Origin: a bacterium
GTDB lineage: Bacteria > Bacteroidota > Ignavibacteria > Palsa-1295
Direction of reading: 5' to 3'
NCBI GenBank assembly: GCA_037143335.1
Contig: JBAWZA010000011.1
Span: 13,494-77,493 of the forward strand
Length of the DNA: 64,000 nt
A program made the position numbers and the translations under genes. The stretch's first letter is position 1. The number at the start of each line of letters is the position of its first letter. Under the pieces are notes generated by a model, which was given only the letters and a program-made list of their open reading frames with translations, was not told the DNA's origin and ran no database searches. This document shows, one piece after another, positions 5,609 through 59,795 of this stretch.

Positions 5609-5694
5609 GTCATTTCGAACGCAGTGAGAAATCGTTAATCGAATATATTTCAGGAATAACGATTTCTCTGTCGTCACGGCGACCTCGAAATGAC
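5609..5694. repeat. Palindromic intergenic repeat, family A copy 1 (GTCATTTCGA...GAGAAATCGTTA-loop-TAACGATTTCTC...TCGAAATGAC)
   Basis: ~86 bp nested inverted repeat between convergent genes (heptose kinase end 5596, nadC end 5716). Copies with >85% identity in the stems occur at 40235-40319 and 42679-42757. Confidence 0.65.
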
Positions 5695-33708: not shown

Positions 33709-35403
33709 TTAACGGAGCACGACAAGAGTCGCTCGCTCTTGACCGAGTGAGATATGGTAGTGACCTACTGCCATTTCTGCTGTCGAAACTGCATATTGAG
33801 TTGAACCTCTTTCGATGAGTTCATCTACAAGCATTGCGCCTTTGAGATCAACGATGCTTATCCGCTCATCGTTTGTGAGCGCAGGGAAACTTAGCATCGC
33901 ATAGCTCGTCGCAGGATTCGGAGTGATATGGAGGTTGCCTTGTGCAATTTTTGGTTGCGGGACACTGCCGATGGCATCAACGATGAAATTTGCCATCATT
34001 CCTCCATCAGCGTGCTCGAGTTTATGGCAATGAATGAGAAATAGTCCAGTGTACTCTGTAAATTTTACAAGTACATTTACCGTACCCTGAGGGTCGAGTC
34101 TCACAACATCTTTCCAACCGCCTTCTGTCGGATCTGGCGGTGCACCGTTACGATTGAGTACTTGAAAATATGAACCATGGACGTGGATAGGATGTGTATT
34201 CTGAGCTTCACTCACAAACTCCCACCGCTCAAGATCTTGGATGGGTACATTTGCATCAATGAGATCCAATGAATAATTGTGCTCGTTCACATGGTGAGTC
34301 GCAGCAAAAATCCATGTCCTTGTTCGCTTTGCATCTGCTACATTATATTTTTCAATTGCTGGAAGTGCAGTTGGGACTGTTCCGTTCGTTACTACGGACT
34401 TCGTAACTTGAAATAAAAGCAAATTCATTGCTGCGCCTTGTGCAACAGTCCCCGAACCCGGTCCGTCACTGAAGGTAAACTTCAGTGATTGTAAGATCAC
34501 TGATTGACCGACGGTGTAGGATGAAAAATCAATGAGAATATCAAGTCGCTCAGCAGGAGCCAACCATGCGGCACTCATTTGGATCGGCTTTTCCATAAAG
34601 CCGCCATCATTGCCGATGACGGTGAATGTTTTTCCGTCGGCTAAAGCAAGTTTATAGAATCTGGAGTTCGAGGCATTGACTACGCGGAATCTATAAAGCG
34701 TCGGAGCTACATTTACAAATGCATTCGGTGTACCATTGATGAGGATTGTATCGCCAAGCCAACCGCTGTTAATGTCAACGGTTGAAGGGTCATAAATCAA
34801 CTGAGAGTTCGCATCGAATCGCTTATCTGTAATCATCAGCGGAATCTCGAACTCGCCAGAGGGCAGGCCCAATGCTTTCTCTTCATCGTCTTCAACGATG
34901 AATAATCCTGCAATTCCCATATAGACTTGCTTGCCAGTACCAACGCCCGTCGCCATATTCATATTCGGATGAGCATGGTAAAAGCTTGCGCCTGCGCGTT
35001 GTTTGATAGGGAAATTAACAGAGTACGAATTACCCGAATCAATCGCGTACTTCGGATGTCCGCCCATCTCGCTTGGCGCATGAATACCATGCCAATGCAA
35101 GATAGAGTTCTCACCTAAATTATTATGGATATTCGCCGTGAATGTATCGCCTTTCTTCACACGAATCGTCGGAGCGGGAAAAGAATTATTCACCAGATAC
35201 ATATCCGTATTGATGCCCGGATAAAGCTGAGCGCTTGCCTTCGCCAACGTTAACTCGCCACCCGTGATGACAGGCGGAATTCGAAGCTCTTGCATTGCTT
35301 CTGGAGCATTGCGAACACTTGCGTCGGCATTACTGAATTTCGCACTCGCGGCAAGTACTCCGAGCTGCGCACTGCGCTTAAGAAAATTTCTGCGGTTAAT
35401 CAT
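33709..35403 (-). CDS. Multicopper oxidase (laccase/CueO-like) with twin-arginine (Tat) signal peptide and T9SS C-terminal sorting domain
   Basis: The N-terminus MINRRNFLKRSAQLGVLAASA is a Tat motif. Copper-binding motifs are HWHGIH, HPIHVHG and HCHKLEHADGGMM. The C-terminus LHITPNPATSYAMLSF...HYHISLGQERATLVVLR matches a Por tail pattern. Confidence 0.8.
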   Translation of the reverse strand: MINRRNFLKRSAQLGVLAASAKFSNADASVRNAPEAMQELRIPPVITGGELTLAKASAQLYPGINTDMYLVNNSFPAPTIRVKKGDTFTANIHNNLGENSILHWHGIHAPSEMGGHPKYAIDSGNSYSVNFPIKQRAGASFYHAHPNMNMATGVGTGKQVYMGIAGLFIVEDDEEKALGLPSGEFEIPLMITDKRFDANSQLIYDPSTVDINSGWLGDTILINGTPNAFVNVAPTLYRFRVVNASNSRFYKLALADGKTFTVIGNDGGFMEKPIQMSAAWLAPAERLDILIDFSSYTVGQSVILQSLKFTFSDGPGSGTVAQGAAMNLLLFQVTKSVVTNGTVPTALPAIEKYNVADAKRTRTWIFAATHHVNEHNYSLDLIDANVPIQDLERWEFVSEAQNTHPIHVHGSYFQVLNRNGAPPDPTEGGWKDVVRLDPQGTVNVLVKFTEYTGLFLIHCHKLEHADGGMMANFIVDAIGSVPQPKIAQGNLHITPNPATSYAMLSFPALTNDERISIVDLKGAMLVDELIERGSTQYAVSTAEMAVGHYHISLGQERATLVVLR

Positions 35404-35444
35404 TGTAGTAAAAACGAAAGTCTGAGGAAAAAAGGTCAGATGAA

Positions 35445-36719
35445 TTATTGCTTTATGATTTTTGCGTAAGTAACACCACGATCTTTTTGAAAGATTAATT
35501 GATACATTCCGTTCGGAAGTGATGAAAGATCGAGTACTGTTTTTTCTTCAGACCCTAACTCAAACCGCATGACCTCAATGCCTCCAATATTTTGCACGAT
35601 GAGTGATTTAAAGGATTGCGGTTTGTGAATTGTTACTTTTGCTGAGAGTGGATTCGGGAACACGTTCATCTCTTTCGGTTCGGATTCATTGTGAACCCCG
35701 CCTGGCAATATAGTAAAAACTTCATTGAGATTGACAATTTGATTTGCATCTTTTCCACCTAAGACATAAATTCTCCCATCCACAGTAGCGGAGGCGATAC
35801 CTGCCCTGCCTGTCATTGAGCCAGTGATGTGAGGTGTAATCCATAAATTAGCGGAAGGATCGAAGACCTCTACGGTGTTTAAATAAGAGATGCCATCGTA
35901 ACCACCGATAACAAAAATTTTATCGTCAACCACAACAGAAGTTAATCCTTGTCTCGGGGTAAACGTCCCGCTTGTTGTTGGAGTCGTCCATGTGTTGGTT
36001 GCAGGATCGAATACCTGTGGCGAAGGGATGTCTTTCGTTGCGCCCTGCCCGCCGAATACATAAATTTTTCCGCCGACAACTCCTGCCGTCAGATCTGATC
36101 GTGCACTCATCGCACCAGTCATGACCGGTGTGCTCCAACTGGAATCGGATGGATCATATACTTCAACAGTACTGAGATAGCCTATATCAGTGTTATAGCC
36201 ACCAATCACGTAGATCTTATTATTCACAACTACGGCGGCGGCTCTCCACCGTTTGGTTAGATTTCCTTTTGTTAGGGGAGTGCTCCACGATGAAGTAGCT
36301 GGGTCAAAAACGTCAAACGTATTTAGTGCACCTGAACTATCATACCCACAGATCACATGAAATTTTCCACCCACATTCGCAACACATGATCCTTTCCGCG
36401 GTGAAAATAAACCAGTAGTGGAGAGGGTAGTCCAGGATTGTGTCTTTGTATCATAAGTCTCGACTTGACCAATATATGTTTTGCCGGTATAGCCACCGAA
36501 CGTAAAAATTTTCCCATCAAGAGCGATGCAAGCGAAAGCATTTCTTGCGGTAAATCCGGATGTTGGCTCACTGCTCCATGACCCTGAAATTGATTGCGCC
36601 GAGACTTCTGAGGTTGAAAAAAAACTTGAGCAACATACAATAATGGCAATAAAAAAACAAACCCCATTGCAGTGCAACAGGGTTCGCTTTGAAATTTGTA
36701 TGTTGGCTAAGCCTGCCAC
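35445..36719 (-). CDS. Kelch-repeat beta-propeller secreted protein with T9SS C-terminal sorting domain
   Basis: Signal/TM N-terminus. Six or more Kelch-like blades ((K)I(Y/F)V(I/F)GG ... W(S/T)TP). The C-terminus NVFPNPLSAKVTIHK...GMYQLIFQKDRGVTYAKIIKQ matches a Por tail pattern. Confidence 0.65.
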   Translation of the reverse strand: MAGLANIQISKRTLLHCNGVCFFIAIIVCCSSFFSTSEVSAQSISGSWSSEPTSGFTARNAFACIALDGKIFTFGGYTGKTYIGQVETYDTKTQSWTTLSTTGLFSPRKGSCVANVGGKFHVICGYDSSGALNTFDVFDPATSSWSTPLTKGNLTKRWRAAAVVVNNKIYVIGGYNTDIGYLSTVEVYDPSDSSWSTPVMTGAMSARSDLTAGVVGGKIYVFGGQGATKDIPSPQVFDPATNTWTTPTTSGTFTPRQGLTSVVVDDKIFVIGGYDGISYLNTVEVFDPSANLWITPHITGSMTGRAGIASATVDGRIYVLGGKDANQIVNLNEVFTILPGGVHNESEPKEMNVFPNPLSAKVTIHKPQSFKSLIVQNIGGIEVMRFELGSEEKTVLDLSSLPNGMYQLIFQKDRGVTYAKIIKQ

Positions 36720-36724
36720 GCTTA

Positions 36725-38440
36725 TTATTGTTTAATTACGAGTACGTTAAAAAACGCAGGTGCAGTGTTTGGTGTAAATGGTTGATTGTTCAAGCTCAAG
36801 ATAGACCATTTACCGCGTGCATTGTCATACGCTACTCCAACCGCCTGCTTGTAGAGTCCGTTGGCAGGAGCATTCAAATCCTTGGTTACGAATGTGACGA
36901 ACACCATGCAACTTGGATCACCATTGCAGATTGGGTTATCAATTTCTGTGCGAGCAGTTGTGACAAGATTCGCATTTGAGACCTGATGAACAAATGCAGT
37001 TTTGTTTGTACCGCTTACTTTGATTGCTCCGTTATCGAGTTGCATCGCTACCCCAATTCCAGTACCTGTGTATGTTGCCTTCACGCCTGCACCGTTCGGA
37101 GACGCTGTCTCGCCAACAACACCGACTGCAGAGCCATTGACGGCAGTTGATTTACCATAGACACCGTTACCACTTGGTGTTTCGCCATAGATCGCCGTGC
37201 CTGTTCCGCCTTGATAACCGATGACTCCGTATCCGAGATTCGTTGTGCTTGTATTGATACCACGTACACCAGCACTCCATTGTGAAGTGGCTCCGCCATT
37301 TGCGCGACCGATTACACCACTCGGACCGACTTGTGAATTCGTACCATTGTTCGTACCATTTGCTTCGCCAAGTACGCCTGTACCGCTATTTGCACCATAG
37401 CCGACTCCATGCAATCCGTTTGAGCCATCAGCGATAGACGTACCCATAATTGCATCGCCATTTCCTGTTGTTGATGCTTCAACCACGTTTGAATTATTGG
37501 CGGCATTTGTGATCTGAAAAGATCCTGCACGACCCGTGTTGCTCATCGCGCTCAAACCGTTGCCCATATCGCCAAGAGCGAGAACGCCAGTGGTTGTGCC
37601 GACTCCGCGACCCAAGATACCTGCAAAGTTGGCATTGCCTCCGTTGCTATATCCAACGACTCCGTTATATCCATTACCGCCATCACCCCAGATAGTAGCA
37701 TTTGACACAATACTTAATCCTGCACCACCTGTAATATCAACCGAGTGAATTCCAGAACCAGTAAGACCAGAATTAGTGATTGTCAGAAGTGGATTGACAT
37801 CATTTGATCCACTTACATTTAATGGCAATGCCAAATTTTGTAGAGGAGCGACGATCTTGATAATTCCATTCGACTCTGATACTTTTACGCCACCTTCACC
37901 GACGAGGGTAAGGTCACCTTGAATACCATTGAGCGTACGAACAACTCCAGTTGCGGCGAGTGTCAAGCCACCAGCTACATCCGCCATGTCGGCATGATCT
38001 GCATTCGTTGCGTTCACGGCATTCGAGGCAGAAACTGCATTGAGTGCATAAGGTGAAGCTACGATGAGTGTGCGCGGAGTGAGTTCAGCTCCGCCATCAA
38101 CAGAGACGCCCAAATAAAAACCAGTGTCAAACTTTACATTCGCTGGAAGTGCAGTCACTGAGCCTACGTTCAAGGAGAACAATCCGCCAACGGTGTGTAC
38201 ACTTTGATTCTCGGTATATACCTCGGCTCCGCCTGTCTGATTTTTGTAGAGACGGATCGTCAGGGTATGTGTTCCATCAGGAACAACCTTGCCAGCACCG
38301 TCAGCTAATGAGCCTTGGTAACTAAAAAGACGAGGCGCTTGAGCAGAGGCTACAGAAGAGCAAATCCCGAGTATCAAGCTTAGGATAAGGAATGAGCGAA
38401 GCAATTTTGTAAATGTTGGTAGCATAATGGTTTTCAACAA
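36725..38440 (-). CDS. Secreted glycine/asparagine-rich repeat protein, phage-tail-fibre-like architecture (function unknown)
   Basis: Signal peptide (LILSLILGICSSVASAQA). The N-terminal FSYQGSL.DGAG..V.DGTH.L.IRLY module is typical of tail-fibre-domain proteins. It is followed by a long G-x-G/N-rich repeat region. No obvious Por tail. Confidence 0.45.
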   Translation of the reverse strand: MLKTIMLPTFTKLLRSFLILSLILGICSSVASAQAPRLFSYQGSLADGAGKVVPDGTHTLTIRLYKNQTGGAEVYTENQSVHTVGGLFSLNVGSVTALPANVKFDTGFYLGVSVDGGAELTPRTLIVASPYALNAVSASNAVNATNADHADMADVAGGLTLAATGVVRTLNGIQGDLTLVGEGGVKVSESNGIIKIVAPLQNLALPLNVSGSNDVNPLLTITNSGLTGSGIHSVDITGGAGLSIVSNATIWGDGGNGYNGVVGYSNGGNANFAGILGRGVGTTTGVLALGDMGNGLSAMSNTGRAGSFQITNAANNSNVVEASTTGNGDAIMGTSIADGSNGLHGVGYGANSGTGVLGEANGTNNGTNSQVGPSGVIGRANGGATSQWSAGVRGINTSTTNLGYGVIGYQGGTGTAIYGETPSGNGVYGKSTAVNGSAVGVVGETASPNGAGVKATYTGTGIGVAMQLDNGAIKVSGTNKTAFVHQVSNANLVTTARTEIDNPICNGDPSCMVFVTFVTKDLNAPANGLYKQAVGVAYDNARGKWSILSLNNQPFTPNTAPAFFNVLVIKQ

Positions 38441-38575
38441 TCGAATTAATGAGTTTTACTTGGTTTTTGAGAACCAACGGGTATGTCCTTTAGTGCCGAA
38501 CGTCGAGGCACCCAAAAAACGCTTCTTGTCGTTCTAACGTTAGGAAAATCGGCTATATCTAAACTTGCTACGACT

Positions 38576-40198
38576 ATGACTTATACTTTACGCACTGCTC
38601 TCTGTATTTCATGCCTCCTTATGCTTTCCCGAATCGCTGTCGGTCAGTACGGAATTGATGTGGACAAATCTTTCGGGACTGGTGGGACAACCGAACTTAC
38701 CATTGGTGGATTCAATAGCGAGATAGCTGCTTTCGATGTGAATCACATCACGAAAATTACGACCATGGCAGCACGCTTGAGTCTCGCAAGCTCTGCGAAT
38801 TATCATATCGGAATGGTCAGGCTTGATACAGCAGGGAAGTTGGACCCAACATTTGGCACAGGTGGCAGTGCGGATTTATCATGGGGTCAGTCCGACAATG
38901 TGAACGCAATGCAACGCCAACTTGAGAACGATAGCATATACTATAATATGTATATTCTCGGTGGATCGAGCAGGGGCACAGCCGTGAACGAGCCTTCAAT
39001 TTACCGCATCAAAGCCAATGGCAGCCCAGATGTAAGTTTCGGAAATGCGGGGAAAATAGTCGTAAAGTTTGCGGATCATTCCGGTGGCGAGGTCACCAAT
39101 GTCGTCAGTGATTTCGGCACCCGTTCCTATTATGTGTATGGCAAAAGCTCAGCATCCGATGAATTAGGAAAAACAGGCTTCGGAGTTGCTCGGATAAAGT
39201 GGAATGGTACGTTTGATTCCTCTTTCGGAAAAGAAGGCAAGGTTATCATTCCTGTCCCCATCCACTCAGTCAACGGTTTTGCCTCACTTCATGGCACTCT
39301 GCAAGGCGCAAGTTATTCCTTGGTTTGCGGAATATGCGATACAGGTCTGAATGAAATTGTGATTGCGAGGGTGAGTGATCAAGGAATTCTTGATTCATCA
39401 ATAGGCGTGAACGGAATCGTCCGAACAGGGAAGTACGCTTCGGCAACGGAGAATATCATGGCGGCATTGCAGTTGCCTGATTTAGATAAACTACTGATCT
39501 TATTACAACCCCCAAAACAAAATCCTACTCCGGTAACGATTTGTCGATTTAAGTCCGATGGCAAGCCTGACTCCACCTATGGATTTGCAGGTGTCTCGTC
39601 GAATTCAATAGCTCCCGGTATCGAGCCGAGAGGATTGAACATACTTAATGACGGCAGTGCAGGTGTGGCAGGAATATACAATTCTGGGTTAGGGCATTCC
39701 ATCTTTACACGAGTCAATGACACAACAGCAGTGCCCGATCCAAAATATTTCCCGAATGGAATTGCCGTCTTTGATTTGGATAACGGGAAATATTCCAACT
39801 ATCTAAAGTTCTACACACCAACAGGCAAGGAAGGTAATTGTAAGAAGTACATCGCTGTCGGAGGTTCGATTCATGATGGTGTTGAGTACATGATGGCAGT
39901 GAGATTCTCGACCTGTCCGCTTGCAGCGGTTGAGCCTGAGGTGATTGCAGGAGATGATTTTTCAATTTACCCAGATCCGGCTGGATCGGAGATAAAAATT
40001 TCTACTCACTCCACATTGGAGGACATTCAGATCACGGATAATGTTGGTACTGTCGTCTATTCGGTTAACCTCAAAAACTCTGGAGCCAACCAAGAAGCCT
40101 ACCGAGTTAATGTTGCGCACCTTCCTTCAGGGTCGTATTTGTGTAGTGTCATTATGAACGGCAAGAAAATCACGAAGCATTTTGTGGTGGTGCATTGA
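38576..40198 (+). CDS. Delta-60-repeat secreted protein with T9SS C-terminal sorting domain (paralogue of 32088..33707)
   Basis: Likely start MTYTLRTALCISCLLMLSRIAVGQ at 38576 (the track ORF begins at 38483). Repeated D(P/S)(T/S)FG.GG units are present. The C-terminus DFSIYPDPAGSEIKIST...YLCSVIMNGKKITKHFVVVH matches a Por tail pattern. Confidence 0.6.
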   Translation: MTYTLRTALCISCLLMLSRIAVGQYGIDVDKSFGTGGTTELTIGGFNSEIAAFDVNHITKITTMAARLSLASSANYHIGMVRLDTAGKLDPTFGTGGSADLSWGQSDNVNAMQRQLENDSIYYNMYILGGSSRGTAVNEPSIYRIKANGSPDVSFGNAGKIVVKFADHSGGEVTNVVSDFGTRSYYVYGKSSASDELGKTGFGVARIKWNGTFDSSFGKEGKVIIPVPIHSVNGFASLHGTLQGASYSLVCGICDTGLNEIVIARVSDQGILDSSIGVNGIVRTGKYASATENIMAALQLPDLDKLLILLQPPKQNPTPVTICRFKSDGKPDSTYGFAGVSSNSIAPGIEPRGLNILNDGSAGVAGIYNSGLGHSIFTRVNDTTAVPDPKYFPNGIAVFDLDNGKYSNYLKFYTPTGKEGNCKKYIAVGGSIHDGVEYMMAVRFSTCPLAAVEPEVIAGDDFSIYPDPAGSEIKISTHSTLEDIQITDNVGTVVYSVNLKNSGANQEAYRVNVAHLPSGSYLCSVIMNGKKITKHFVVVH

Positions 40199-40234: not shown

Positions 40235-40319
40235 GTCATTTCGACCGAAGGGAGAAATCGTTAAGCCTGAGAAGATCGGAGCAACGATTTCTCGGTCGCT
40301 GAGGCGACCTCGAAACGAT
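40235..40319. repeat. Palindromic intergenic repeat, family A copy 2
   Basis: TGTCATTTCGACCGAAGGGAGAAATCGTTAAGCC...GCAACGATTTCTCGGTCGCTGAGGCGACCTCGAAACGA. It lies between convergent gene ends (40198 / 40347). Confidence 0.65.
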
Positions 40320-40346: not shown

Positions 40347-41609
40347 TCATGGTTCTACTACTGCTACTTTACCAGCTATCGCATACACGCCTTTCCAATC
40401 GGCGCGTTCAACCAGGACATAATAGATTCCGCGGGGGATAGAGGAAATATCTACAGTCAATGGTGCATTATCTAAGGTCATCCCTGTAATAACCGATCTA
40501 CCAAAGACATCTATCATCTTGAACGGTGTGCCTCGCTCAACCGAGGCGATAGTTAGACGGGTTGTTGCGGGATTGGGATAGACGCGACTATTATAATGTA
40601 ACTTTCCGGATTCTTCTACTCCGGCTCCACCAATGGAAAGGACTTGAACTAAATATGTGGTATCGAGATTAAAGCCTCCGATCACGTAAACCTTATTACC
40701 ACCACTCGTCGCACTTGGCTCAAATCTGCTACCAAATGTGCCTGATGTATTGAGCAAACTCCATCTGTTTGTTGCAGTATCAAAGACTTCAGTATTGCTG
40801 AGATTTCTCCCACCATGGTACCAATCGCCCCCGCCGATTGCATAAATCTTACCATTGATTTCCCCTAGAGAATTATCCAATCTGGGATACGCCAATGAAT
40901 TTTTCTGTGGACTGCTCCATTTATTCGTAGCTACATCGTAAATTTGAAGGTCACAATGACAAGTTGAGTCAGGTGGAAGACCCACAACATAAATTTTATT
41001 TCCCATCGCTACTGCGTGTGGTGAATAAACTTGATGCATTGAATCAACAGTGTAAGGTGGAGTAGTCCAACTGTGTCTTTTTGTATCATAAATTTCAACT
41101 GTAGTCAACCATCCGATATTCCTATCGTTTCCACCGACAACGTAAATACTATCTCCTATTGAGCAAGAAGTAGCCAAACCTCGATCCGTGAATAATAAAC
41201 TGCCTTCTCTTAGATCATCCGTTGTCCAAGTATTAGTTTGAGGATCAAAAACTGAAACGCTATCGGCAAATGTGGTATTATCAATCTCACCTCCAATGAC
41301 ATATATTTTGCCGTTTAAAACGGTTGCTGTGTGGGAGGCGCGTGGTAGAAAGCTTCCTTGGGTTTGTGGAGTACTCCAGGAATTAGATGCTATATCATAA
41401 ACCTGTAGAAGGTTTATCGGGAATCTCCCATCATACCCACCGATACAATATATTTTACCATTAAAATAGGATGAACTTAATCCATCTCTATTTGGAGTAA
41501 ATCCCACTTTTGAAAGAGTCTTCCAAGAAGCAGACTGTGCCTGCACTTCTGATAAATCTATCAGAAGCGCAAGGACAGCCACAAGTATGAATATTCTTGT
41601 AATTTTCAT
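40347..41609 (-). CDS. Kelch-repeat beta-propeller secreted protein with conserved CHC motif and T9SS C-terminal sorting domain (cassette 1, gene 2)
   Basis: Likely start MKITRIFILVAVLALL at 41609, in a TAATG overlap with the upstream Cys-rich gene. Kelch blades are present, plus the PDSTCHCDLQIYD motif. The C-terminus YPNPATTRLTIASVERG...YYVLVERADWKGVYAIAGKVAVVEP matches a Por tail pattern. It is a paralogue of 54958..56271. Confidence 0.65.
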   Translation of the reverse strand: MKITRIFILVAVLALLIDLSEVQAQSASWKTLSKVGFTPNRDGLSSSYFNGKIYCIGGYDGRFPINLLQVYDIASNSWSTPQTQGSFLPRASHTATVLNGKIYVIGGEIDNTTFADSVSVFDPQTNTWTTDDLREGSLLFTDRGLATSCSIGDSIYVVGGNDRNIGWLTTVEIYDTKRHSWTTPPYTVDSMHQVYSPHAVAMGNKIYVVGLPPDSTCHCDLQIYDVATNKWSSPQKNSLAYPRLDNSLGEINGKIYAIGGGDWYHGGRNLSNTEVFDTATNRWSLLNTSGTFGSRFEPSATSGGNKVYVIGGFNLDTTYLVQVLSIGGAGVEESGKLHYNSRVYPNPATTRLTIASVERGTPFKMIDVFGRSVITGMTLDNAPLTVDISSIPRGIYYVLVERADWKGVYAIAGKVAVVEP

Positions 41610-42298
41610 TACATGCCACAGGGTGGATGATAACAAGTTCCGTCTGTAAGCCAATCACCAACCTTCGTTGGTGCATCATCGCAATCAACTGTGCCTTGAG
41701 TAGTGTAGGTTACATTGCTCGTCTCAATCGCTCCATTGTTACCTCTGCAAAGATCAAAACTCATCACACAATAACTGTTGAGATGACAGGGGATAAATGC
41801 CCAGCGATTTGGGCTGGTTGAAATCTGTATTCTCTTGAAACATGCAGGAAGAAACATTTGCGAATGCCATGTTATGACCGGTCCAGTACAAGGTGGTACG
41901 TTTCCTGTACTGATTAGTGGGATCAAGTCAGCTTTTACCGCGGCGGAAATCTGTGCTACAAAGTCCGCTGTTGTAATGTTATTATTACAGCCTGCCACAG
42001 AATCGATCCTCGTTATAACGCTCTGGAATGTCACATCGCCAGAAAAGGGGAAATTATGTACTTCCCGCCAACAGTAACAAACAGTTACGTCACAACCACC
42101 AGTAATTGAAACGACAAGTTGGACACTGTTCCAACTGTAGCATGTTGCCCCTCCAGGACAACCTAAAGTTATTCCGGAGCAACTTGGACATTGCGCCTCC
42201 ACCGCAGTTGTAAAAAGCAAAAGCGTGAGTATAATTCCCGCTATGCTGGAAGTGAATTTGGCAAACAGTTTATTGAATGATTGTTGATAGTGTTCCAT
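41609..42298 (-). CDS. Cysteine-rich (~20 Cys) secreted protein of unknown function (cassette 1, gene 1)
   Basis: 229 aa; signal peptide ending VEAQ. The mature region CPSCSG...GCDVTVCYCWREVHNFP...CDDAPTKVGDWLTDGTCYHPPCG aligns with 54299..54955, conserving most cysteines. Confidence 0.6.
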   Translation of the reverse strand: MEHYQQSFNKLFAKFTSSIAGIILTLLLFTTAVEAQCPSCSGITLGCPGGATCYSWNSVQLVVSITGGCDVTVCYCWREVHNFPFSGDVTFQSVITRIDSVAGCNNNITTADFVAQISAAVKADLIPLISTGNVPPCTGPVITWHSQMFLPACFKRIQISTSPNRWAFIPCHLNSYCVMSFDLCRGNNGAIETSNVTYTTQGTVDCDDAPTKVGDWLTDGTCYHPPCGM

Positions 42299-42457
42299 AG
42301 TAGTATATTCAGTGTTTTAGTTTAAAAAGAGGATATGGCTTTTGCGAAGGCAAAAGCTTCCCCGGAATACAAAATCGCTTGATTTTTGTATCCTCGTGGT
42401 TTTCTGAAATGAAATGGAATCTGGAGGAGACCGAGAAAATTATGGCACGATAATTGC

Positions 42458-42468
42458 GGGGGGGGGGG
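42458..42468. repeat. Homopolymeric G11 tract in the divergent intergenic region (candidate slipped-strand phase-variation site)
   Basis: The sequence gcgggggggggggtaaacc is read directly. It lies ~160 bp upstream of the Cys-rich gene start (42298, minus) and ~390 bp upstream of the E1 gene start (42858, plus). Confidence 0.6.
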
Positions 42469-42678
42469 TAAACCTCACCAGTAGGGAATCTAGCTTATAA
42501 AAAATAGTACGCACGGTGTATATCTTTTCACCACGAATATACAACGCTTTTTTTAACTTCGTTTAAAATCGAAGTTTTCTCACGTTGGGTTTGCCGCCAG
42601 TCGAAACGGCGCAGGAAGACAAAGTCGCTTATAAAGGAATGGTGTTTAAATTTACGTATTAGCGAAGACACTCATACT

Positions 42679-42757
42679 GGTCATTCCGAAGGTAGGGAGA
42701 AATCGTTAAGCCTCAATCTTTCAGGCATAACGATTTCTCACATTCGCTCGAAATGAC
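42679..42757. repeat. Palindromic intergenic repeat, family A copy 3 (shorter right arm), flanked by ATACTGG direct repeats
   Basis: GGTCATTCCGAAGGTAGGGAGAAATCGTTAAGCC...GCATAACGATTTCTCACATTCGCTCGAAATGAC. The flanks are catACTGG|element|ttatACTGG. Confidence 0.6.
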
Positions 42758-42857
42758 TTATACTGGAATGATTGCGTAATGCCCGTACAAGAATCTCTCT
42801 CGCACCAAACAATCCCCATAGTTGTTTTCTCGTCCCAAAATACACTTTTTTTGATCC

Positions 42858-45137
42858 ATGCCGACGAAAAAGAAAACGTCTATCGCCGACACTCAGACAC
42901 TTGCAACTCTCAACGGAGAGCAAGCTGGCTACACCCACCATACACTCAATTCCCACGATCTTGAGCAGGAATACGCATTCTCTGTATCTCCTGCTTCGTT
43001 GGAGCAAATGCCAGACGGCGCGCTCTTAGTAGGTCCACGAGCTGATGGGTCGCAATCATTCGCTGGCACCCTTGCAGAGTCAGGGCAATCAAAAGAGACC
43101 CTGATTTCATGGTACAAGTTAATGCAATTAGGGAGAATTTGCGATGATGCTGCCGCCAATTACTTGAAGAAGGCAATGGGCTGGAGCTACCACGCTCCGT
43201 GCGCTGGACATGAAGGCATTCAAGCCGCAATCGGAATTTCTTTCCGTCAAAAACAAGATTACCTTTTTCCATACTATCGCGATCTTATGACCTGCCTTGC
43301 TGCGGGAATGACGGTGGAAGAAATTATCTTAAATGGACTCTCGAAAGAAACCGATCTTGCAGGTGGTGGAAGACATATGTCGAACCACTTTGCGAAAATG
43401 TCTATCGGTATTCAGAATGGGTCATCGCTGACGAATAATCATTCACAGCATGTGACAGGTTGCGCGCGCGCAATTAAATATTACGGACTTGATGCCGTTG
43501 CAATTTTTTCGGGTGGTGAATCCGGTTGCTCCGAGGGATTTTTCTACGAAGCACTTAATGGTGCAACGAAGGAACAAGTACCGGCAATTTTTGTGATTCA
43601 AAATAATAAGTACGGAATCTCTGTACCAGTTTTTGATCAAACTGCGAATGGGCGAGTAGCCGATAACTTCAGAGGATTTGCAAATCTTCTGATCACCTAT
43701 TGCGATGGCACAGATATTTTAGACTCCTACCGTGCGATGCAAGAGGCATACGATTGGACGCGCTCTGGCAAGGGCGCAGCAATTGTCCATGCTGATTGTG
43801 TGAGGATGCGTTCGCACTCAAACAGTGATCGTGATAGTCTCTACCGCACACCCGAAGAAATTGCAAATGCTGCGAAGCGTGATCCGATCGAGCGATTCGC
43901 TTCATGGCTTATTCGTGAGGGGGTATTGACACAGAAGGAAATTGAGAGAATTCACGAACAAAATAAAATTGATTTTTACGCATCTGCTGAAAAAGCAGAA
44001 GCCGCACCACCAGCTGATCCTGCGACTGTCGAAGAGTTTGCTCAAGCACCGCTTACGATCGTTTCAAAAGGTAGTTATACGTTTGAACCGGGTGATGTGA
44101 ATGTGAATCTGCATCCGTACGAACTTCCAGCGAAGGAAGAAGGACTGAAGTTTATCGATGCCCTCAACCATACCCTCAAGGAAGAATTTCGCCTGAACCC
44201 TAACACCTTTATTTGGGGACAAGACATGGCGAATAAAGACAAGGGCGGAGTCTTTAATGTATCAAAAGGAATGCAGCAGGAGTTCGGTCCGAAGCGTGTG
44301 TTCAATGCTCCAATCGCCGAAGATTTTATCGTGGGCACCGCTGATGGATTTTGCCGAGTTGATCAGGAGAATATCTGGTGCGTTGTCGAAGGAGCCGAGT
44401 TCGCTGATTATTTTTGGCCAGCAATGGAGTCGTTCATCGAACTCACGCATGAGTATTGGCGCACGAAGGGGCAATACTTGCCGAACATTGTGATTCGCAT
44501 TGCATCGGGTGGATATATTCAAGGCGGATTATATCACTCACAAAATCTCGAAGGGACGTTCACAACTATTCCAGGCGTTCGCGTGATTGTACCAAGTTTT
44601 GCTGATGATGCACAAGGACTCTTGCGCACAGCAATGCGCACACGCGGAGTCACGCTCTACCTTGAACCCAAAGCCCTTTATAATGCACCTCAAGCAAAAA
44701 CTTTTTCGCTCGGCGATAATGAGTTAGTCCCATTCGGAAAAGCTCGTCTGAGAAGATCAGGTGAACATCTCTCGATTATCACTTACGGGAATACAACTCA
44801 TCTCTCAATAGTTGCCGCTGATGAATTAGCACAAGAAGGTATCACCGCCGACGTGCTTGATTTGCGTTCGCTCTATCCGTTAGATATTGAGGCAATCCTT
44901 GCCACTGCGTCAAAGACAGGTAGAGTGTTGGTTGTTCACGAGGATAAAATCACAGGAGGTTTCGGAGGCGAAATTTCTGCACTCATCACTGAACAAGCAT
45001 TTAACTATCTCGACGCACCGGTCATGCGTGTTGGCTCGCTTTTCCAACCGGTTGGATTCGCAAAGCAATTAGAAGATGCGATCTTACCAAGTGCAAAGAA
45101 AATAGCAGAAGCCGCTCGGAAGTTGGTGGCTTGGTAA
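42858..45137 (+). CDS. Thiamine-diphosphate-dependent 2-oxoacid dehydrogenase E1 component, fused alpha/beta subunits
   Basis: 759 aa. The N-terminal half has the E1-alpha TPP-binding region (HAPCAGHEGIQAAIG, GGRHMSNH, FSGGESGCSEG). The C-terminal half has the E1-beta/transketolase-like pyrimidine-binding and C-terminal domains. Confidence 0.8.
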   Translation: MPTKKKTSIADTQTLATLNGEQAGYTHHTLNSHDLEQEYAFSVSPASLEQMPDGALLVGPRADGSQSFAGTLAESGQSKETLISWYKLMQLGRICDDAAANYLKKAMGWSYHAPCAGHEGIQAAIGISFRQKQDYLFPYYRDLMTCLAAGMTVEEIILNGLSKETDLAGGGRHMSNHFAKMSIGIQNGSSLTNNHSQHVTGCARAIKYYGLDAVAIFSGGESGCSEGFFYEALNGATKEQVPAIFVIQNNKYGISVPVFDQTANGRVADNFRGFANLLITYCDGTDILDSYRAMQEAYDWTRSGKGAAIVHADCVRMRSHSNSDRDSLYRTPEEIANAAKRDPIERFASWLIREGVLTQKEIERIHEQNKIDFYASAEKAEAAPPADPATVEEFAQAPLTIVSKGSYTFEPGDVNVNLHPYELPAKEEGLKFIDALNHTLKEEFRLNPNTFIWGQDMANKDKGGVFNVSKGMQQEFGPKRVFNAPIAEDFIVGTADGFCRVDQENIWCVVEGAEFADYFWPAMESFIELTHEYWRTKGQYLPNIVIRIASGGYIQGGLYHSQNLEGTFTTIPGVRVIVPSFADDAQGLLRTAMRTRGVTLYLEPKALYNAPQAKTFSLGDNELVPFGKARLRRSGEHLSIITYGNTTHLSIVAADELAQEGITADVLDLRSLYPLDIEAILATASKTGRVLVVHEDKITGGFGGEISALITEQAFNYLDAPVMRVGSLFQPVGFAKQLEDAILPSAKKIAEAARKLVAW

Positions 45138-53881: not shown

Positions 53882-54211
<330 letters not shown>

Positions 54212-54298: not shown

Positions 54299-54955
54299 AT
54301 GACAACAAAAAACAGAGCATACTCTTTTTTTAAGACGATAGGAATTATTCTTCCATTACTACTCTTTATTTCTCAGGCAAGGGCACAATGCCCATCGATA
54401 CCATGCCCAAATCCTGGGAATTGTACTGGATGGTCATCTGTAACTGGAGTTCCAGTTCATATTTCTAGCGGGTGTGACCTCTATGTAAACTATTGTTATA
54501 GGACGGTACACAATTGGCCTACTACAGGTTTCGAAACACTCCAGGCTGTCATCACTGAAATTGATTCTGACGCTCATTGTGATGATGATATCACTACTGC
54601 AAGTTTTGTTGCAGAAGTGCAGTCTGCGATCTCTGTAGATGCTTCAACACATGCTGTTTCACCACCCCCATGTAACAACCAAGTTAGTGGTAGTTATAAG
54701 ATGGAATTACGAACCCCTGCATGTTTGAAGCGTGTAGCAACTTCATACAATCATTACGCCCTTGTGATGGCTTGTGAGAGTACTACTTCATTTTGCTTGA
54801 TGACATGTGATCTGTGCCATGACAGTAATGGTACAACGCTGAAACAAAATTGTACATTTACTCTTGAAGGTACACCACCATGTGATGATGCACCAACCAA
54901 GATGGGAGATTGGCCAACGGATGCATGCAGACACCCAGTATGTGGCACTTTCTAA
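54299..54955 (+). CDS. Cysteine-rich secreted protein (cassette 2, gene 1; paralogue of 41609..42298)
   Basis: 218 aa; signal peptide ending ARAQ. The mature region CPSIPCPNPGNC...GCDLYVNYCYRTVHNWP...CDDAPTKMGDWPTDACRHPVCG has cysteines co-linear with the cassette-1 protein. Confidence 0.6.
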   Translation: MTTKNRAYSFFKTIGIILPLLLFISQARAQCPSIPCPNPGNCTGWSSVTGVPVHISSGCDLYVNYCYRTVHNWPTTGFETLQAVITEIDSDAHCDDDITTASFVAEVQSAISVDASTHAVSPPPCNNQVSGSYKMELRTPACLKRVATSYNHYALVMACESTTSFCLMTCDLCHDSNGTTLKQNCTFTLEGTPPCDDAPTKMGDWPTDACRHPVCGTF

Positions 54956-54957
54956 TT

Positions 54958-56271
54958 ATGAAGTCTAAATTAAGGTTTTCTCTACTTGTTCTTGTGCTTC
55001 TTAGCTTAGGCTCGGAAGCACAAGGACAGGTTAAACCCTTTTGGACAACTCTTTCCGCGAAAGGGTTTACACAACGTCAGGGACTAACGGCATCCCTATT
55101 CAATGGCAAGATTTATACGATTGGTGGTGTCTTGTATCCTTGGTTTAAAGAAAATCTGGTAGAGGTATATAACCCTACCACTGACTTGTGGAGTACTCCT
55201 AAAACAATTGGCCGATGCCCACCACATTATGCTCATACTGCAAACGTTGTAGGTAGTAAGATTTACATCATTGGAGGTGTTCAAGGTCTGTCTATCTATG
55301 ACGATACAGTCTGGGTTTTTAATCCAATTGATAATAGTTGGAGTCTTGATACGATTATGGACGAAGGCAATGCGCCTCATCCTGGACTTATCAATTCAAC
55401 GTCATGTGTAATTGGCGATAGTATCTACGTCTTTGGTGGAGTAGATTTAGGTGGTAGCTTTAGTAGTACAGTTCAGATTTACGATACTAAGCGACACCGT
55501 TGGTCTTTCATGCCTCAGACCGCCGATTCAATGCGGACTGTAACAACTCCAAAATCTTTTCTCGTTGGGGATAAAATGTATGTTGTCGGCTTGCCTGGTA
55601 TAGCAAATGGCCAACCTGAAGATACAGCCTGCCATTGCACTGTTCAGGTTTATGATCCAGTAACGAATAGGTGGAGATGGCCTTCTACTGATACAATGCG
55701 TTTCCCGAGATTTGCATTCGTAGGAGAATCTTATACTACTCCAAAACATCAGACTCAAATACGTCTCATTGGCGGAATCAGTTATAATGGTGGGAATGAT
55801 CCACCGAAAACTGATACGTATGATACGTTATTCCGTAAATGGGGACAGGAACTTCCGGACGGTGAATTTACCGTTCGAATTGGAGCCGCATCATGTTTGA
55901 TCGGCGATAAAATTTATGTTATTGGTGGGGTCTTTGGTAGAGGTGCTACTGATACGAGCTTGAACCAAGTACTTACAATCCCACAACTGCAGAGTGTTGA
56001 AAATGGCTTTGATAAAATATTTTATTATAGCCGAATCTACCCCAACCCAGCAACAACGACTCTTAACATTGTTTCTGTAGAGGTTGGTACTCCGTTCAAG
56101 ATCCTTGATATATTGGGTAGAGAAGCAATGATAGGCAAGACATTAGATAATGCAACATTAACAGTTGACATATCGAATCTTTCAACAGGTTTTTATTATG
56201 TTCTTGTCGAGCGTGCGGATATGAAAGGTCAGTACTCTATCGCTGGCAAGCTTGCAGTCATTGGGAAGTAA
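54958..56271 (+). CDS. Kelch-repeat beta-propeller secreted protein with CHC motif and T9SS C-terminal sorting domain (cassette 2, gene 2; paralogue of 40347..41609)
   Basis: Start MKSKLRFSLLVLVLLSLG lies 2 nt after the upstream stop. Kelch blades are present, plus the EDTACHCTVQVYD motif. The C-terminus YPNPATTTLNIVSVEVG...YYVLVERADMKGQYSIAGKLAVIGK matches a Por tail pattern. Confidence 0.65.
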   Translation: MKSKLRFSLLVLVLLSLGSEAQGQVKPFWTTLSAKGFTQRQGLTASLFNGKIYTIGGVLYPWFKENLVEVYNPTTDLWSTPKTIGRCPPHYAHTANVVGSKIYIIGGVQGLSIYDDTVWVFNPIDNSWSLDTIMDEGNAPHPGLINSTSCVIGDSIYVFGGVDLGGSFSSTVQIYDTKRHRWSFMPQTADSMRTVTTPKSFLVGDKMYVVGLPGIANGQPEDTACHCTVQVYDPVTNRWRWPSTDTMRFPRFAFVGESYTTPKHQTQIRLIGGISYNGGNDPPKTDTYDTLFRKWGQELPDGEFTVRIGAASCLIGDKIYVIGGVFGRGATDTSLNQVLTIPQLQSVENGFDKIFYYSRIYPNPATTTLNIVSVEVGTPFKILDILGREAMIGKTLDNATLTVDISNLSTGFYYVLVERADMKGQYSIAGKLAVIGK

Positions 56272-58625: not shown

Positions 58626-59795
58626 ATGAATCGGTTTCTGATTTATTTTTTGCTAACATTCCTATTCTTCGGTTCGAAGTCGATAGCTCAAACCATTCGT
58701 GTCGATTCAGTTACTCTTGACGAATATCAGAATGCGCTGATTCTAAAAGGATCGCTCCCATTTGACTTTGCCGTATTAACGGTAAATGGCAAGAACCTAA
58801 AATTGATAAAAGGGGATACCTCAGAGGCAGTATTCTCATTACCCTCTGTTGGTCCTGGATCGTCAGGTCCAATTAGAATAATATTCTTGACTGACACTCT
58901 CGCTGGTTGGGAGATTAACGAATGGTATGCTCATGTACGGGGTCTTAAGAGGATTTTCCCACCGAGTTATATTAGTAGCCCTGCACCTCAGCCCCCACTC
59001 TCTTCATTCGAATGGAATTTGTTCTTCCGCATGGTTAAGGGAAACTTCGGGAAGCTCATCACACATTCTGCTATCCCCTCGGTAGAATCTACGTGTTCAT
59101 GGGATTGCAACCAAACCCAACCATGGCCTACACTAACGTCTGAAGCCCGATATATTGGGAATGGTGAATATCAGAGGATGGATACTTCAAAGCATTCGTC
59201 AACAGGATTCATTGTGTTTGCAAATGTTAATGAAGCTACTGATTCGATGATCCTCGAGTTTCCCCCACCCCTGGGAGCCAGATGCAAGTACGAATTATGG
59301 TATGAAGGTCATTCGCCTTGGTCAATATTGGCATCAGAGAGCTCCGATTTATCGGTTAAGTTACCGGTTCTTCATTTGCAAATCCATGACTTAAACCTCG
59401 TTCTCCCTGGGCACATTCTCTCAGATACTACAATTATGGAATGGCGAGAGTTGTTAGATACATATTGGGATTCCATACGCATTGTTCCGACACAGATTGA
59501 CACTTCAAGAGTGTTGATTAGTAAGTACACCCCTAGAGTTACTTTTTCAAATTTGAGCCCCAACCCGTTTAGCACAAAATCAACTTTCTATATTTCCCTC
59601 ACTTCGGAAGAATTCACCACATTAAAAATTTACAATCCACTCGGTATCGAAATATCTACTCTCGTTAGTCAACGATTGCCTGCTGGCGACCATCGAATAG
59701 AATTTGACGCCTCCAATCTCCCGTCCGGCATATATTATTACCGCTTGCAGATCGGCGGGCAGGTGGAGACAAAGCCGTTGGTTGTGGTGCGGTAG
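58626..59795 (+). CDS. Secreted hypothetical protein with T9SS C-terminal sorting domain
   Basis: 389 aa with a signal peptide. The C-terminus LSPNPFSTKSTFYISL...GIYYYRLQIGGQVETKPLVVVR matches a Por tail pattern. Confidence 0.55.
   Translation: MNRFLIYFLLTFLFFGSKSIAQTIRVDSVTLDEYQNALILKGSLPFDFAVLTVNGKNLKLIKGDTSEAVFSLPSVGPGSSGPIRIIFLTDTLAGWEINEWYAHVRGLKRIFPPSYISSPAPQPPLSSFEWNLFFRMVKGNFGKLITHSAIPSVESTCSWDCNQTQPWPTLTSEARYIGNGEYQRMDTSKHSSTGFIVFANVNEATDSMILEFPPPLGARCKYELWYEGHSPWSILASESSDLSVKLPVLHLQIHDLNLVLPGHILSDTTIMEWRELLDTYWDSIRIVPTQIDTSRVLISKYTPRVTFSNLSPNPFSTKSTFYISLTSEEFTTLKIYNPLGIEISTLVSQRLPAGDHRIEFDASNLPSGIYYYRLQIGGQVETKPLVVVR

Follow-up and report, generated by a model that had tools for sequence, protein, structure and literature searches.

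A run of 11 consecutive G residues lies between two divergent genes in the stretch of bacterial DNA that was analysed here (64 kb in all, referred to as the window), and its presence raises the question whether such a tract could switch the expression of either neighbour. One neighbour encodes a Cys-rich secreted protein and is the first gene of a cassette (cassette 1), of which the window carries a diverged second copy (cassette 2). The other encodes a fused E1 alpha/beta 2-oxoacid dehydrogenase. In the initial annotation the run was taken for a promoter spacer with a bearing on both genes, and for one of two repeats by which the duplicated cassettes might be switched stochastically. The tract, designated G11, is real and statistically anomalous. 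Judged from its position and from the homologous loci, it probably acts as a slippage-prone on/off or dimmer switch upstream of a secreted-protein operon.

The G11 tract and its genomic context

Read directly from the sequence, the + strand carries 11 consecutive G at 42458-42468 within the flanks ATTGC-G11-TAAACC. The tract is situated in an intergenic region of 559 bp (42299-42857), with 160 nt separating its start from the Cys-rich ATG and 389 nt separating its end from the E1 ATG. The presence of the run in this divergent region, about 160 bp upstream of the Cys-rich gene and upstream of E1 as well, had been claimed in the initial annotation and was borne out. It is the only homopolymer of at least 9 nt in the 64-kb window, and the next G/C run by length is a G7. 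The window has a GC content of 45%, and G/C runs of at least 11 nt are expected 0.008 times per 64 kb when bases are taken as independent and 0.003 times under a first-order Markov model. G11 is in this respect a repeat far longer than chance, as is characteristic of a simple-sequence-repeat (SSR) contingency locus.

Exact-protein look-ups recovered the region in just two contigs, a SPAdes contig from ENA (ERZ4222710 NODE_93; 99.9 kb at a coverage of 8.7) and one from the Logan assembly of SRR12676966, the same reads probably underlying both. Each matches the window at 100% identity throughout the region and shows the run as G11; the earlier concern about an assembler artefact is answered by this agreement of two assemblers. 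No other length allele of G11 was found in these two assemblies, and a flank-pattern scan of JGI metagenomes for alleles of other tract length gave 0 matches. The tract was assembled through in the Logan contig, which neither shows nor excludes minor alleles. Its exact length could be off by 1.

The start codon of the Kelch gene overlaps the stop codon of the Cys-rich gene by 1 nt, and the two genes of cassette 1 are therefore an operon (Table 1). Besides its Kelch beta-propeller (Pfam Kelch_1, 1e-51), the Kelch protein has a Por_Secre_tail domain and matches NCBIfam TIGR04183, the T9SS type-A sorting domain. Both Cys-rich proteins of the window have a signal peptide ending in ...A before QC, with Gln at +1. 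Such an end agrees with the 'Q-rule' that holds for Bacteroidota substrates of signal peptidase I. As predicted from these signals, both proteins of the operon are secreted, the Kelch protein as T9SS cargo. Both ORFs of cassette 1 are intact, and the Cys pattern is kept. The duplication of the cassette that had been noted earlier was confirmed, the Cys-rich proteins of cassettes 1 and 2 being 45% identical and the Kelch proteins 44%. No similarity was found between the upstream regions of the two cassettes. Secreted, duplicated and diverged gene products of this kind are typical targets of contingency loci. Two pairs of ORFs of equal length (571/571 aa and 1337/1337 aa) were also compared as possible duplicates and proved not to be so.

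The Cys-rich protein gave no match in Pfam or NCBIfam. A profile built from the two paralogues retrieved 43 representatives among 1.84 billion proteins, and the family is marked by about 12 conserved Cys residues and by the ...AQC end of the signal peptide. An AlphaFold2 model is confident (pLDDT 81) and of the alpha/beta type; a Foldseek search with this model against the PDB gave no fold match. Elsewhere in the window, genes for T9SS cargo are dense at 33709-40198 and at 58626-59795. They encode a multicopper oxidase, a third Kelch protein (35445-36719) that is preceded by a DUF7452 protein, a delta-60-repeat protein and a 389-aa protein, and no long repeat lies near them.

On the E1 side of the tract a palindromic element of about 80 nt is found, which occurs in three copies in the window and resembles REP (repetitive extragenic palindromic) repeats. 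Its sequence can be written as GTCATTYCGA...GAGAAATCGTTA...TAACGATTTCTC...TCGAAATGAC. Copies B and C bracket cassette 1. Among species-representative genomes, MAGs of Candidatus Kapaibacterium come closest, their E1 proteins being 69-86% identical, and the sole part of the intergenic region that is conserved with Kapaibacterium relatives is a block of about 40 nt by the E1 ATG, likely to be the E1 promoter or leader as judged by its place in the alignment. Eight related genomes keep the order E1, bifunctional nuclease and ETF without the Cys-rich/Kelch cassette, and none of the eight has a G/C run of at least 8 nt upstream of E1. Because these closest relatives lack the cassette, they give no comparison for the tract. 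In the window, cassette 1 is preceded by a delta-60-repeat T9SS gene. In one relative (L004) the same gene is directly followed by E1, for which reason cassette 1 and the tract look like an insertion. The position of copies B and C suggests that the cassette may have been inserted or mobilised between palindromic elements. A search by tblastn with three regulators for a degenerate LuxR gene upstream of cassette 1 matched only the poly-Pro codons of the tract, and this candidate was dropped.

Table 1. Positions in the window of the tract, the cassettes and the neighbouring elements.
Feature	Position	Strand	Description
G11 homopolymer	42458-42468	.	C11 on the coding strand of the Cys-rich operon; candidate slipped-strand tract
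Cys-rich secreted protein gene, first of cassette 1	41609-42298	-	229 aa; MEI8134880.1; ORF and translation
Kelch beta-propeller gene with T9SS C-terminal sorting domain, cassette 1	40347-41609	-	420 aa (gene call in L001)
Fused E1 alpha/beta 2-oxoacid dehydrogenase gene	42858-45137	+	Divergent neighbour of the Cys-rich gene
LuxR/GerE-family gene	53882-54211	+	109 aa; MEI8134890.1; Pfam GerE 45 bits
(GA)14	53905-53932	+	Codons 9-18 (Arg-Glu repeat, RE) of the LuxR/GerE-family gene
Cys-rich gene, cassette 2	54299-54955	+	Paralogue of cassette 1
Kelch gene, cassette 2	54910-56271	+	Paralogue of cassette 1
Palindromic element, first copy	5609-5694
Palindromic element, copy B	40235-40318
Palindromic element, copy C	42680-42757	.	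Between tract and E1; fold z = -4.1
E1-proximal block	42797-42836	+	Alignment with L004, L005 and L006
TTGTATATTCG	42534-42544	-	One mismatch to the TTGTAT(A/C)TTTG box
TATTTTTT	42506-42499	-	One-mismatch box candidate
TAATTTTC	42442-42435	-	One-mismatch box candidate, 15 nt downstream of the tract
Candidate promoter elements around the tract, out of register	42435-42472	-	TTTACC, CATAAT/TAATTTTC
Structured leader	42324-42395	-	Hairpins 42364-42393 and 42338-42358; RNA fold z = -2.8

Candidate promoter elements and leader of cassette 1

The promoter of the operon must be situated in 42299-42679, which is the sole non-coding stretch available to it, and the position of G11 in the middle of this stretch was counted for a role as a switch. 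The region was scanned for the Bacteroidota-type -7 box TAnnTTTG (with TTTG at -33). This box is somewhat enriched in the window, with 58 matches against 42 ± 6 in shuffles. In the correct orientation it occurs upstream of six other genes, including a LuxR-family gene and the second Cys-rich gene, where our estimate for the 4.3 kb of scanned upstream sequence is about 1.4 expected matches. No exact TAnnTTTG was found on either strand in 42299-42857. The intergenic region contains three boxes with one mismatch, and about two are expected by chance in 380 nt. One of the three, TTGTATATTCG, is close to the TTGTAT(A/C)TTTG box that occurs upstream of both the LuxR-family gene and the second Cys-rich gene. 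As a putative alternative promoter it would put G11 in the 5' UTR at about +60.

Directly 5' of the tract stands the hexamer TTTACC. The spacings that result across G11 are TTTACC-N22-CATAAT, TTTACC-N11-AATTAT and TTTA-N26-TAATTTTC, and a sigma-70 promoter scan yielded no site that included G11. In the window the tract does not lie between two promoter elements at near-functional spacing, the arrangement that marks switches of the porA, opc and fim type. The initial idea of a promoter spacer was thus not upheld in its simple form, as the region has no exact -7 box and the flanking hexamers are 22 or 11 nt apart. At G11 the closest -10/-7-like elements miss the register by 5-6 nt, and the tract would therefore be several slippage steps away from an 'ON' spacing. 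Under a spacing model the present G11 allele would be OFF or low. Frameshifting of the Cys-rich gene by G11 was ruled out, since none of the three frames stays open from the tract to the ATG.

Between the tract and the start codon the predicted transcript is structured. The hairpins of this leader are closed by GAGGATA/TATCCTC and are followed by T5 (42324-42328) about 25 nt before the ATG, an arrangement that, as folded in silico, looks like a terminator or an attenuator. A similar hairpin followed by T7 precedes the Cys-rich gene of a homologous locus discussed below (L093, 2447-2473). In both loci the hairpin and T-run stand about 25-30 nt before the Cys-rich start and both continue as TTTTT(T)AACTAA. 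The hairpin and T-run common to the two loci may represent a conserved attenuator-like leader. Searches of Rfam revealed no RNA family in the whole window, in the intergenic region at a permissive threshold, or in six family loci, and a tRNA scan found none.

An 11-nt imperfect inverted repeat, GTAGTATATTC / GAATATACAAC (42300-42310 / 42535-42545), brackets a 224-bp segment that includes the tract and the leader, and one of its arms overlaps the TTGTATATTCG box. An inverton was considered on account of this repeat and was rejected: the repeat is only 11 nt long and imperfect, and about two of this kind are expected by chance in 700 bp (our estimate). No recombinase gene was found among the ORFs scanned, which cover part of the window.

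Long repeats at loci of the Cys-rich family

DNA was available for ten loci of the family, namely the two cassettes of the window and eight other loci; none of the family loci was found in viral contigs. The module is conserved and consists of the Cys-rich gene followed by one or two T9SS genes of the beta-propeller class (Kelch or BNR/sortilin type). Directly upstream of the Cys-rich gene a small gene of the LuxR/GerE type is often present. It was recognized in cassette 2 of the window (GerE, 45 bits) and in L088 (29.8 bits), and LuxR-like genes are found in L093 (17.5 bits, below the cut-off) and, by translation, in L085.

A G/C run of 11-12 nt is located between -270 and +50 of the gene start in three of the ten loci, at -160 in the window, at -254 in L093 and at +40 in L089. 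In unrelated loci and the rest of the window, which served as background, one G/C run of at least 9 nt was encountered in 788,581 nt. Three runs in the 4,738 nt of 5' zones of the family correspond to a Poisson P of 2.9e-7; with the discovery locus left out, two runs in 4,238 nt correspond to P = 5.7e-5.

The tract of L089 (Logan ERR15009262) is found in a gene (530-1171) for a distant Cys-rich homologue with 27% identity. Here a G12 at 570-581 is in frame inside the codons of the signal peptide (FWGGGV). Only with G9, G12 or G15 is the complete protein made, and G11 or G13 leads to products of 17-28 aa. As read from the predicted frame, the arrangement is a classic one for translational phase variation.

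In L093 (ENA ERZ26871208) a C11 on the coding strand (2237-2247) falls within the final codons of the small LuxR-like gene, 254 nt ahead of the Cys-rich start codon; the contig name 'np1212' suggests nanopore polishing, by which homopolymer length is unreliable, and the length of this tract is accordingly uncertain. The tracts of L093 and of the window have identical flanks, TTTA-C11-GC. The C11 of L093 forms a 17-nt spacer, TTTACC-N17-AATAAT, which is the only sigma-70-like match of that region and points at the Cys-rich gene.

On the strand that carries G, TAA(A/C) follows each of the three long tracts (window 42458-42471; L089 570-584; L093 2234-2247). At about 125-134 in L085 a G5-TAAAA is present at -115, and L089 has two additional copies of AGGGTAA upstream. 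The orientation of G-tract and TAA relative to the gene differs between the loci.

The second repeat of the window, (GA)14, is its sole long dinucleotide repeat. It had been regarded as the counterpart of G11 at the other cassette. Both repeats are real, but (GA)14 is inside the LuxR/GerE-family gene, which lies directly upstream of cassette 2 at 87 nt from the second Cys-rich gene. As an intragenic repeat, and not a promoter repeat, (GA)14 would therefore act by frameshift. The LuxR-family protein is full-length, with the helix-turn-helix kept, only when the number of repeat units is 11, 14 or 17, and otherwise 22-34 aa remain. The Logan assembly of SRR12676966 breaks at this repeat, L090 ending in CACTC(GA)14 and L087 beginning with (GA)13AGAAAACC. 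Such a break would result from branching caused by length heterogeneity, and also from stutter or low coverage at a repeat near the k-mer length, and is no more than suggestive.

Long repeats thus recur at the 5' ends of genes of the Cys-rich family, and two of them are in frame inside coding regions. They are tied to homologous and paralogous surface-protein genes, through the G/C runs in three of the ten loci and through (GA)14 in the regulator of the paralogous cassette.

Proposed function of the tract and comparison with known systems

Because long tracts recur in the Cys-rich family, the interpretation of G11 as a contingency tract finds its support at the family level. We give about an even chance to the proposal that G11 is a hypermutable contingency tract which modulates transcription of the Cys-rich/Kelch operon, within a family-wide tendency towards control by repeats. 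Slippage during replication would alter the length of G11. The change in length would in turn alter transcription of the operon through the spacing or the helical phase between an upstream element (TTTACC or an activator site) and the core promoter or, if transcription begins upstream of the tract, through an altered 5' leader. The expected outcome would be a heritable and reversible variation from cell to cell in a pair of surface or secreted proteins, and the tract would exert no control over the E1 dehydrogenase gene. The variation in length, the effect on transcription and the promoter concerned are inferred. The stochastic switching that was first proposed gained support from the G/C runs of 11-12 nt at distant family 5' ends, but no length variant of G11 appeared in the two assemblies.

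A wider proposal is that the module of LuxR-type regulator, Cys-rich protein and beta-propeller T9SS protein is, as a trait of the family, under repeat control in T9SS-bearing bacteria that are free-living and uncultured, such as Kapabacteria, the tract having been recruited independently at three levels. This is tentative, and we hold it to be somewhat more doubtful than not. The levels, put forward with the same reserve, would be the upstream non-coding sequence (window and L093), the coding sequence of the regulator ((GA)14) and the codons of the signal peptide (L089).

Several other explanations have to be weighed. The tract could be a functionless accident or a decaying remnant, cassette 1 having been inserted and being perhaps poorly expressed or silent, and the tract being perhaps left from an L093-like ancestor in which C11 ended a LuxR-like gene. 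The bracketing of the inserted cassette by palindromic copies B and C, the want of a regulator gene and of an exact -7 box upstream of it, and the flanks TTTA-C11-GC that it has in common with L093 are all consistent with such a history. It is nonetheless unlikely in view of the intact ORFs and conserved Cys pattern of cassette 1 and of the fast decay of long G/C runs unless selected for. No trace of a LuxR-like reading frame was seen, and function is favoured by the fact that such tracts recur in three distant loci (P about 1e-5 to 1e-7). An effect at the level of RNA is also conceivable, in which transcription starts upstream of the tract, for instance at TTGTATATTCG, and the C11 and the terminator-like hairpin belong to the leader. 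The C-rich stretch would then influence Rho loading, pausing, transcriptional slippage or the fold of the leader, and not promoter spacing. This possibility is in agreement with the single base by which TTGTATATTCG differs from the boxes upstream of the LuxR-family and second Cys-rich genes, with the structured leader and its hairpin and T5 close to the ATG, with the comparable hairpin and T7 of L093, and with the C-rich character of the tract on the transcribed strand in both loci. However, boxes with one mismatch are expected about twice by chance in 380 nt, and no Rfam family was matched. In addition, L093 has an exact TATTTTTG box downstream of its tract, so that the tract there would be upstream of the transcription start. 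Overall we consider an action on RNA rather improbable.

The two remaining explanations carry much less weight. The idea that the tract modulates the divergent E1 gene, or both genes, rests on position, G11 being 389 nt upstream of the E1 ATG in a common intergenic region. The strong palindromic element and the conserved E1 block intervene, and in the eight related genomes the E1 order is kept without the cassette or a G/C run of at least 8 nt, which makes control of E1 by G11 unlikely. Moreover, the only conserved block adjoins the E1 ATG, and E1 is a core metabolic gene. The link to E1 that had been proposed at the outset is on this evidence positional only, and we regard such control as very improbable. 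Finally, the run might be an artefact of sequencing or assembly, for example a poly-G of two-colour Illumina chemistry, in which such artefacts exist, or a chimeric join at the low coverage of 8.7x. This is the least probable of the explanations and is very unlikely indeed, because an 11-nt run is shorter than the k-mers used in assembly and must be spanned by reads. The two assemblers agree for several kb on either side, the gene order is coherent across the tract, and similar tracts are seen in homologous loci from other samples and platforms.

Taken alone, the G11 tract is a modest result, a plausible switch. The recurrence at the family level is the most interesting result. If confirmed, the family-wide association of long repeats with the Cys-rich/beta-propeller T9SS module would identify this module as a surface structure exposed to fluctuating selection, perhaps an adhesin or a phage receptor, and would offer a way into the function of a protein family with neither annotation nor a structural match. 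It would also imply that contingency loci can be recognised in metagenome assemblies by their recurrence at homologous loci, with no need for strain collections. Should the wider reading as a family trait be true, strong fluctuating selection, e.g. by phage or predator recognition, would act on an uncharacterised surface complex of environmental bacteria.

The arrangement at cassette 1 resembles the 'C-stretch' of fim2, fim3 and fimX in Bordetella pertussis and Bordetella bronchiseptica, where about 7-19 C on the coding strand are found upstream of surface-protein genes (Willems et al. 1990; Gogol et al. 2007, PMC1891110). As in the present family, paralogous genes each have their own tract. 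In Bordetella the length of the tract sets the distance from the activator site to the -10 box and hence the abundance of the transcript. The activator BvgA has a LuxR-type helix-turn-helix domain. Genes of the LuxR type are the usual upstream neighbour in the Cys-rich family as well, although cassette 1 has no adjacent regulator gene. The Bordetella tract lies no more than about 80 nt from the start codon, where it overlaps a promoter that has been mapped (a range of 21-80 nt was used for promoter-overlapping tracts), and its length polymorphism between strains is documented (PMC1891110). The tract described here is 160 nt from the ATG and thus beyond the 21-80 nt of Bordetella, the promoter elements around it are no more than candidates, and no length polymorphism was seen, both assemblies reading G11.

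In Neisseria meningitidis a poly-G or poly-C is situated in the spacer between -35 and -10 of porA and opc. The present loci are alike in having a homopolymer between a -35-like and a -10-like hexamer, which in L093 are separated by a 17-nt spacer containing C11. In the window, by contrast, the hexamers are 22 or 11 nt apart and not 16-18. A further difference is that sigma factors of the Bacteroidota type use -33/-7 elements, and cassette 1 has no exact -7 box. Intragenic poly-G and other repeat tracts cause translational phase variation in Campylobacter jejuni, Haemophilus and Neisseria. The G12 of L089 and (GA)14 are of the same kind, being 5'-proximal, in frame at every third length and associated with surface or secreted targets. 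Unlike these, G11 of the window is in no frame that leads into the Cys-rich gene.

Stochastic ON/OFF expression of surface structures is also known within the same broad phylum from the invertons of Bacteroides. An 11-nt imperfect inverted repeat surrounds the tract here; yet the defining feature of the locus is a simple-sequence repeat and not an invertible segment. Most documented cases of phase variation by simple-sequence repeats come from host-adapted pathogens, whereas the present locus belongs to a free-living bacterium of the FCB (Fibrobacteres-Chlorobi-Bacteroidetes) group that is uncultured. That surface proteins can undergo repeat-mediated phase variation is as such well known; what is new in the proposed case is its setting, an uncultured lineage resembling Kapabacteria and an unannotated family of Cys-rich proteins.
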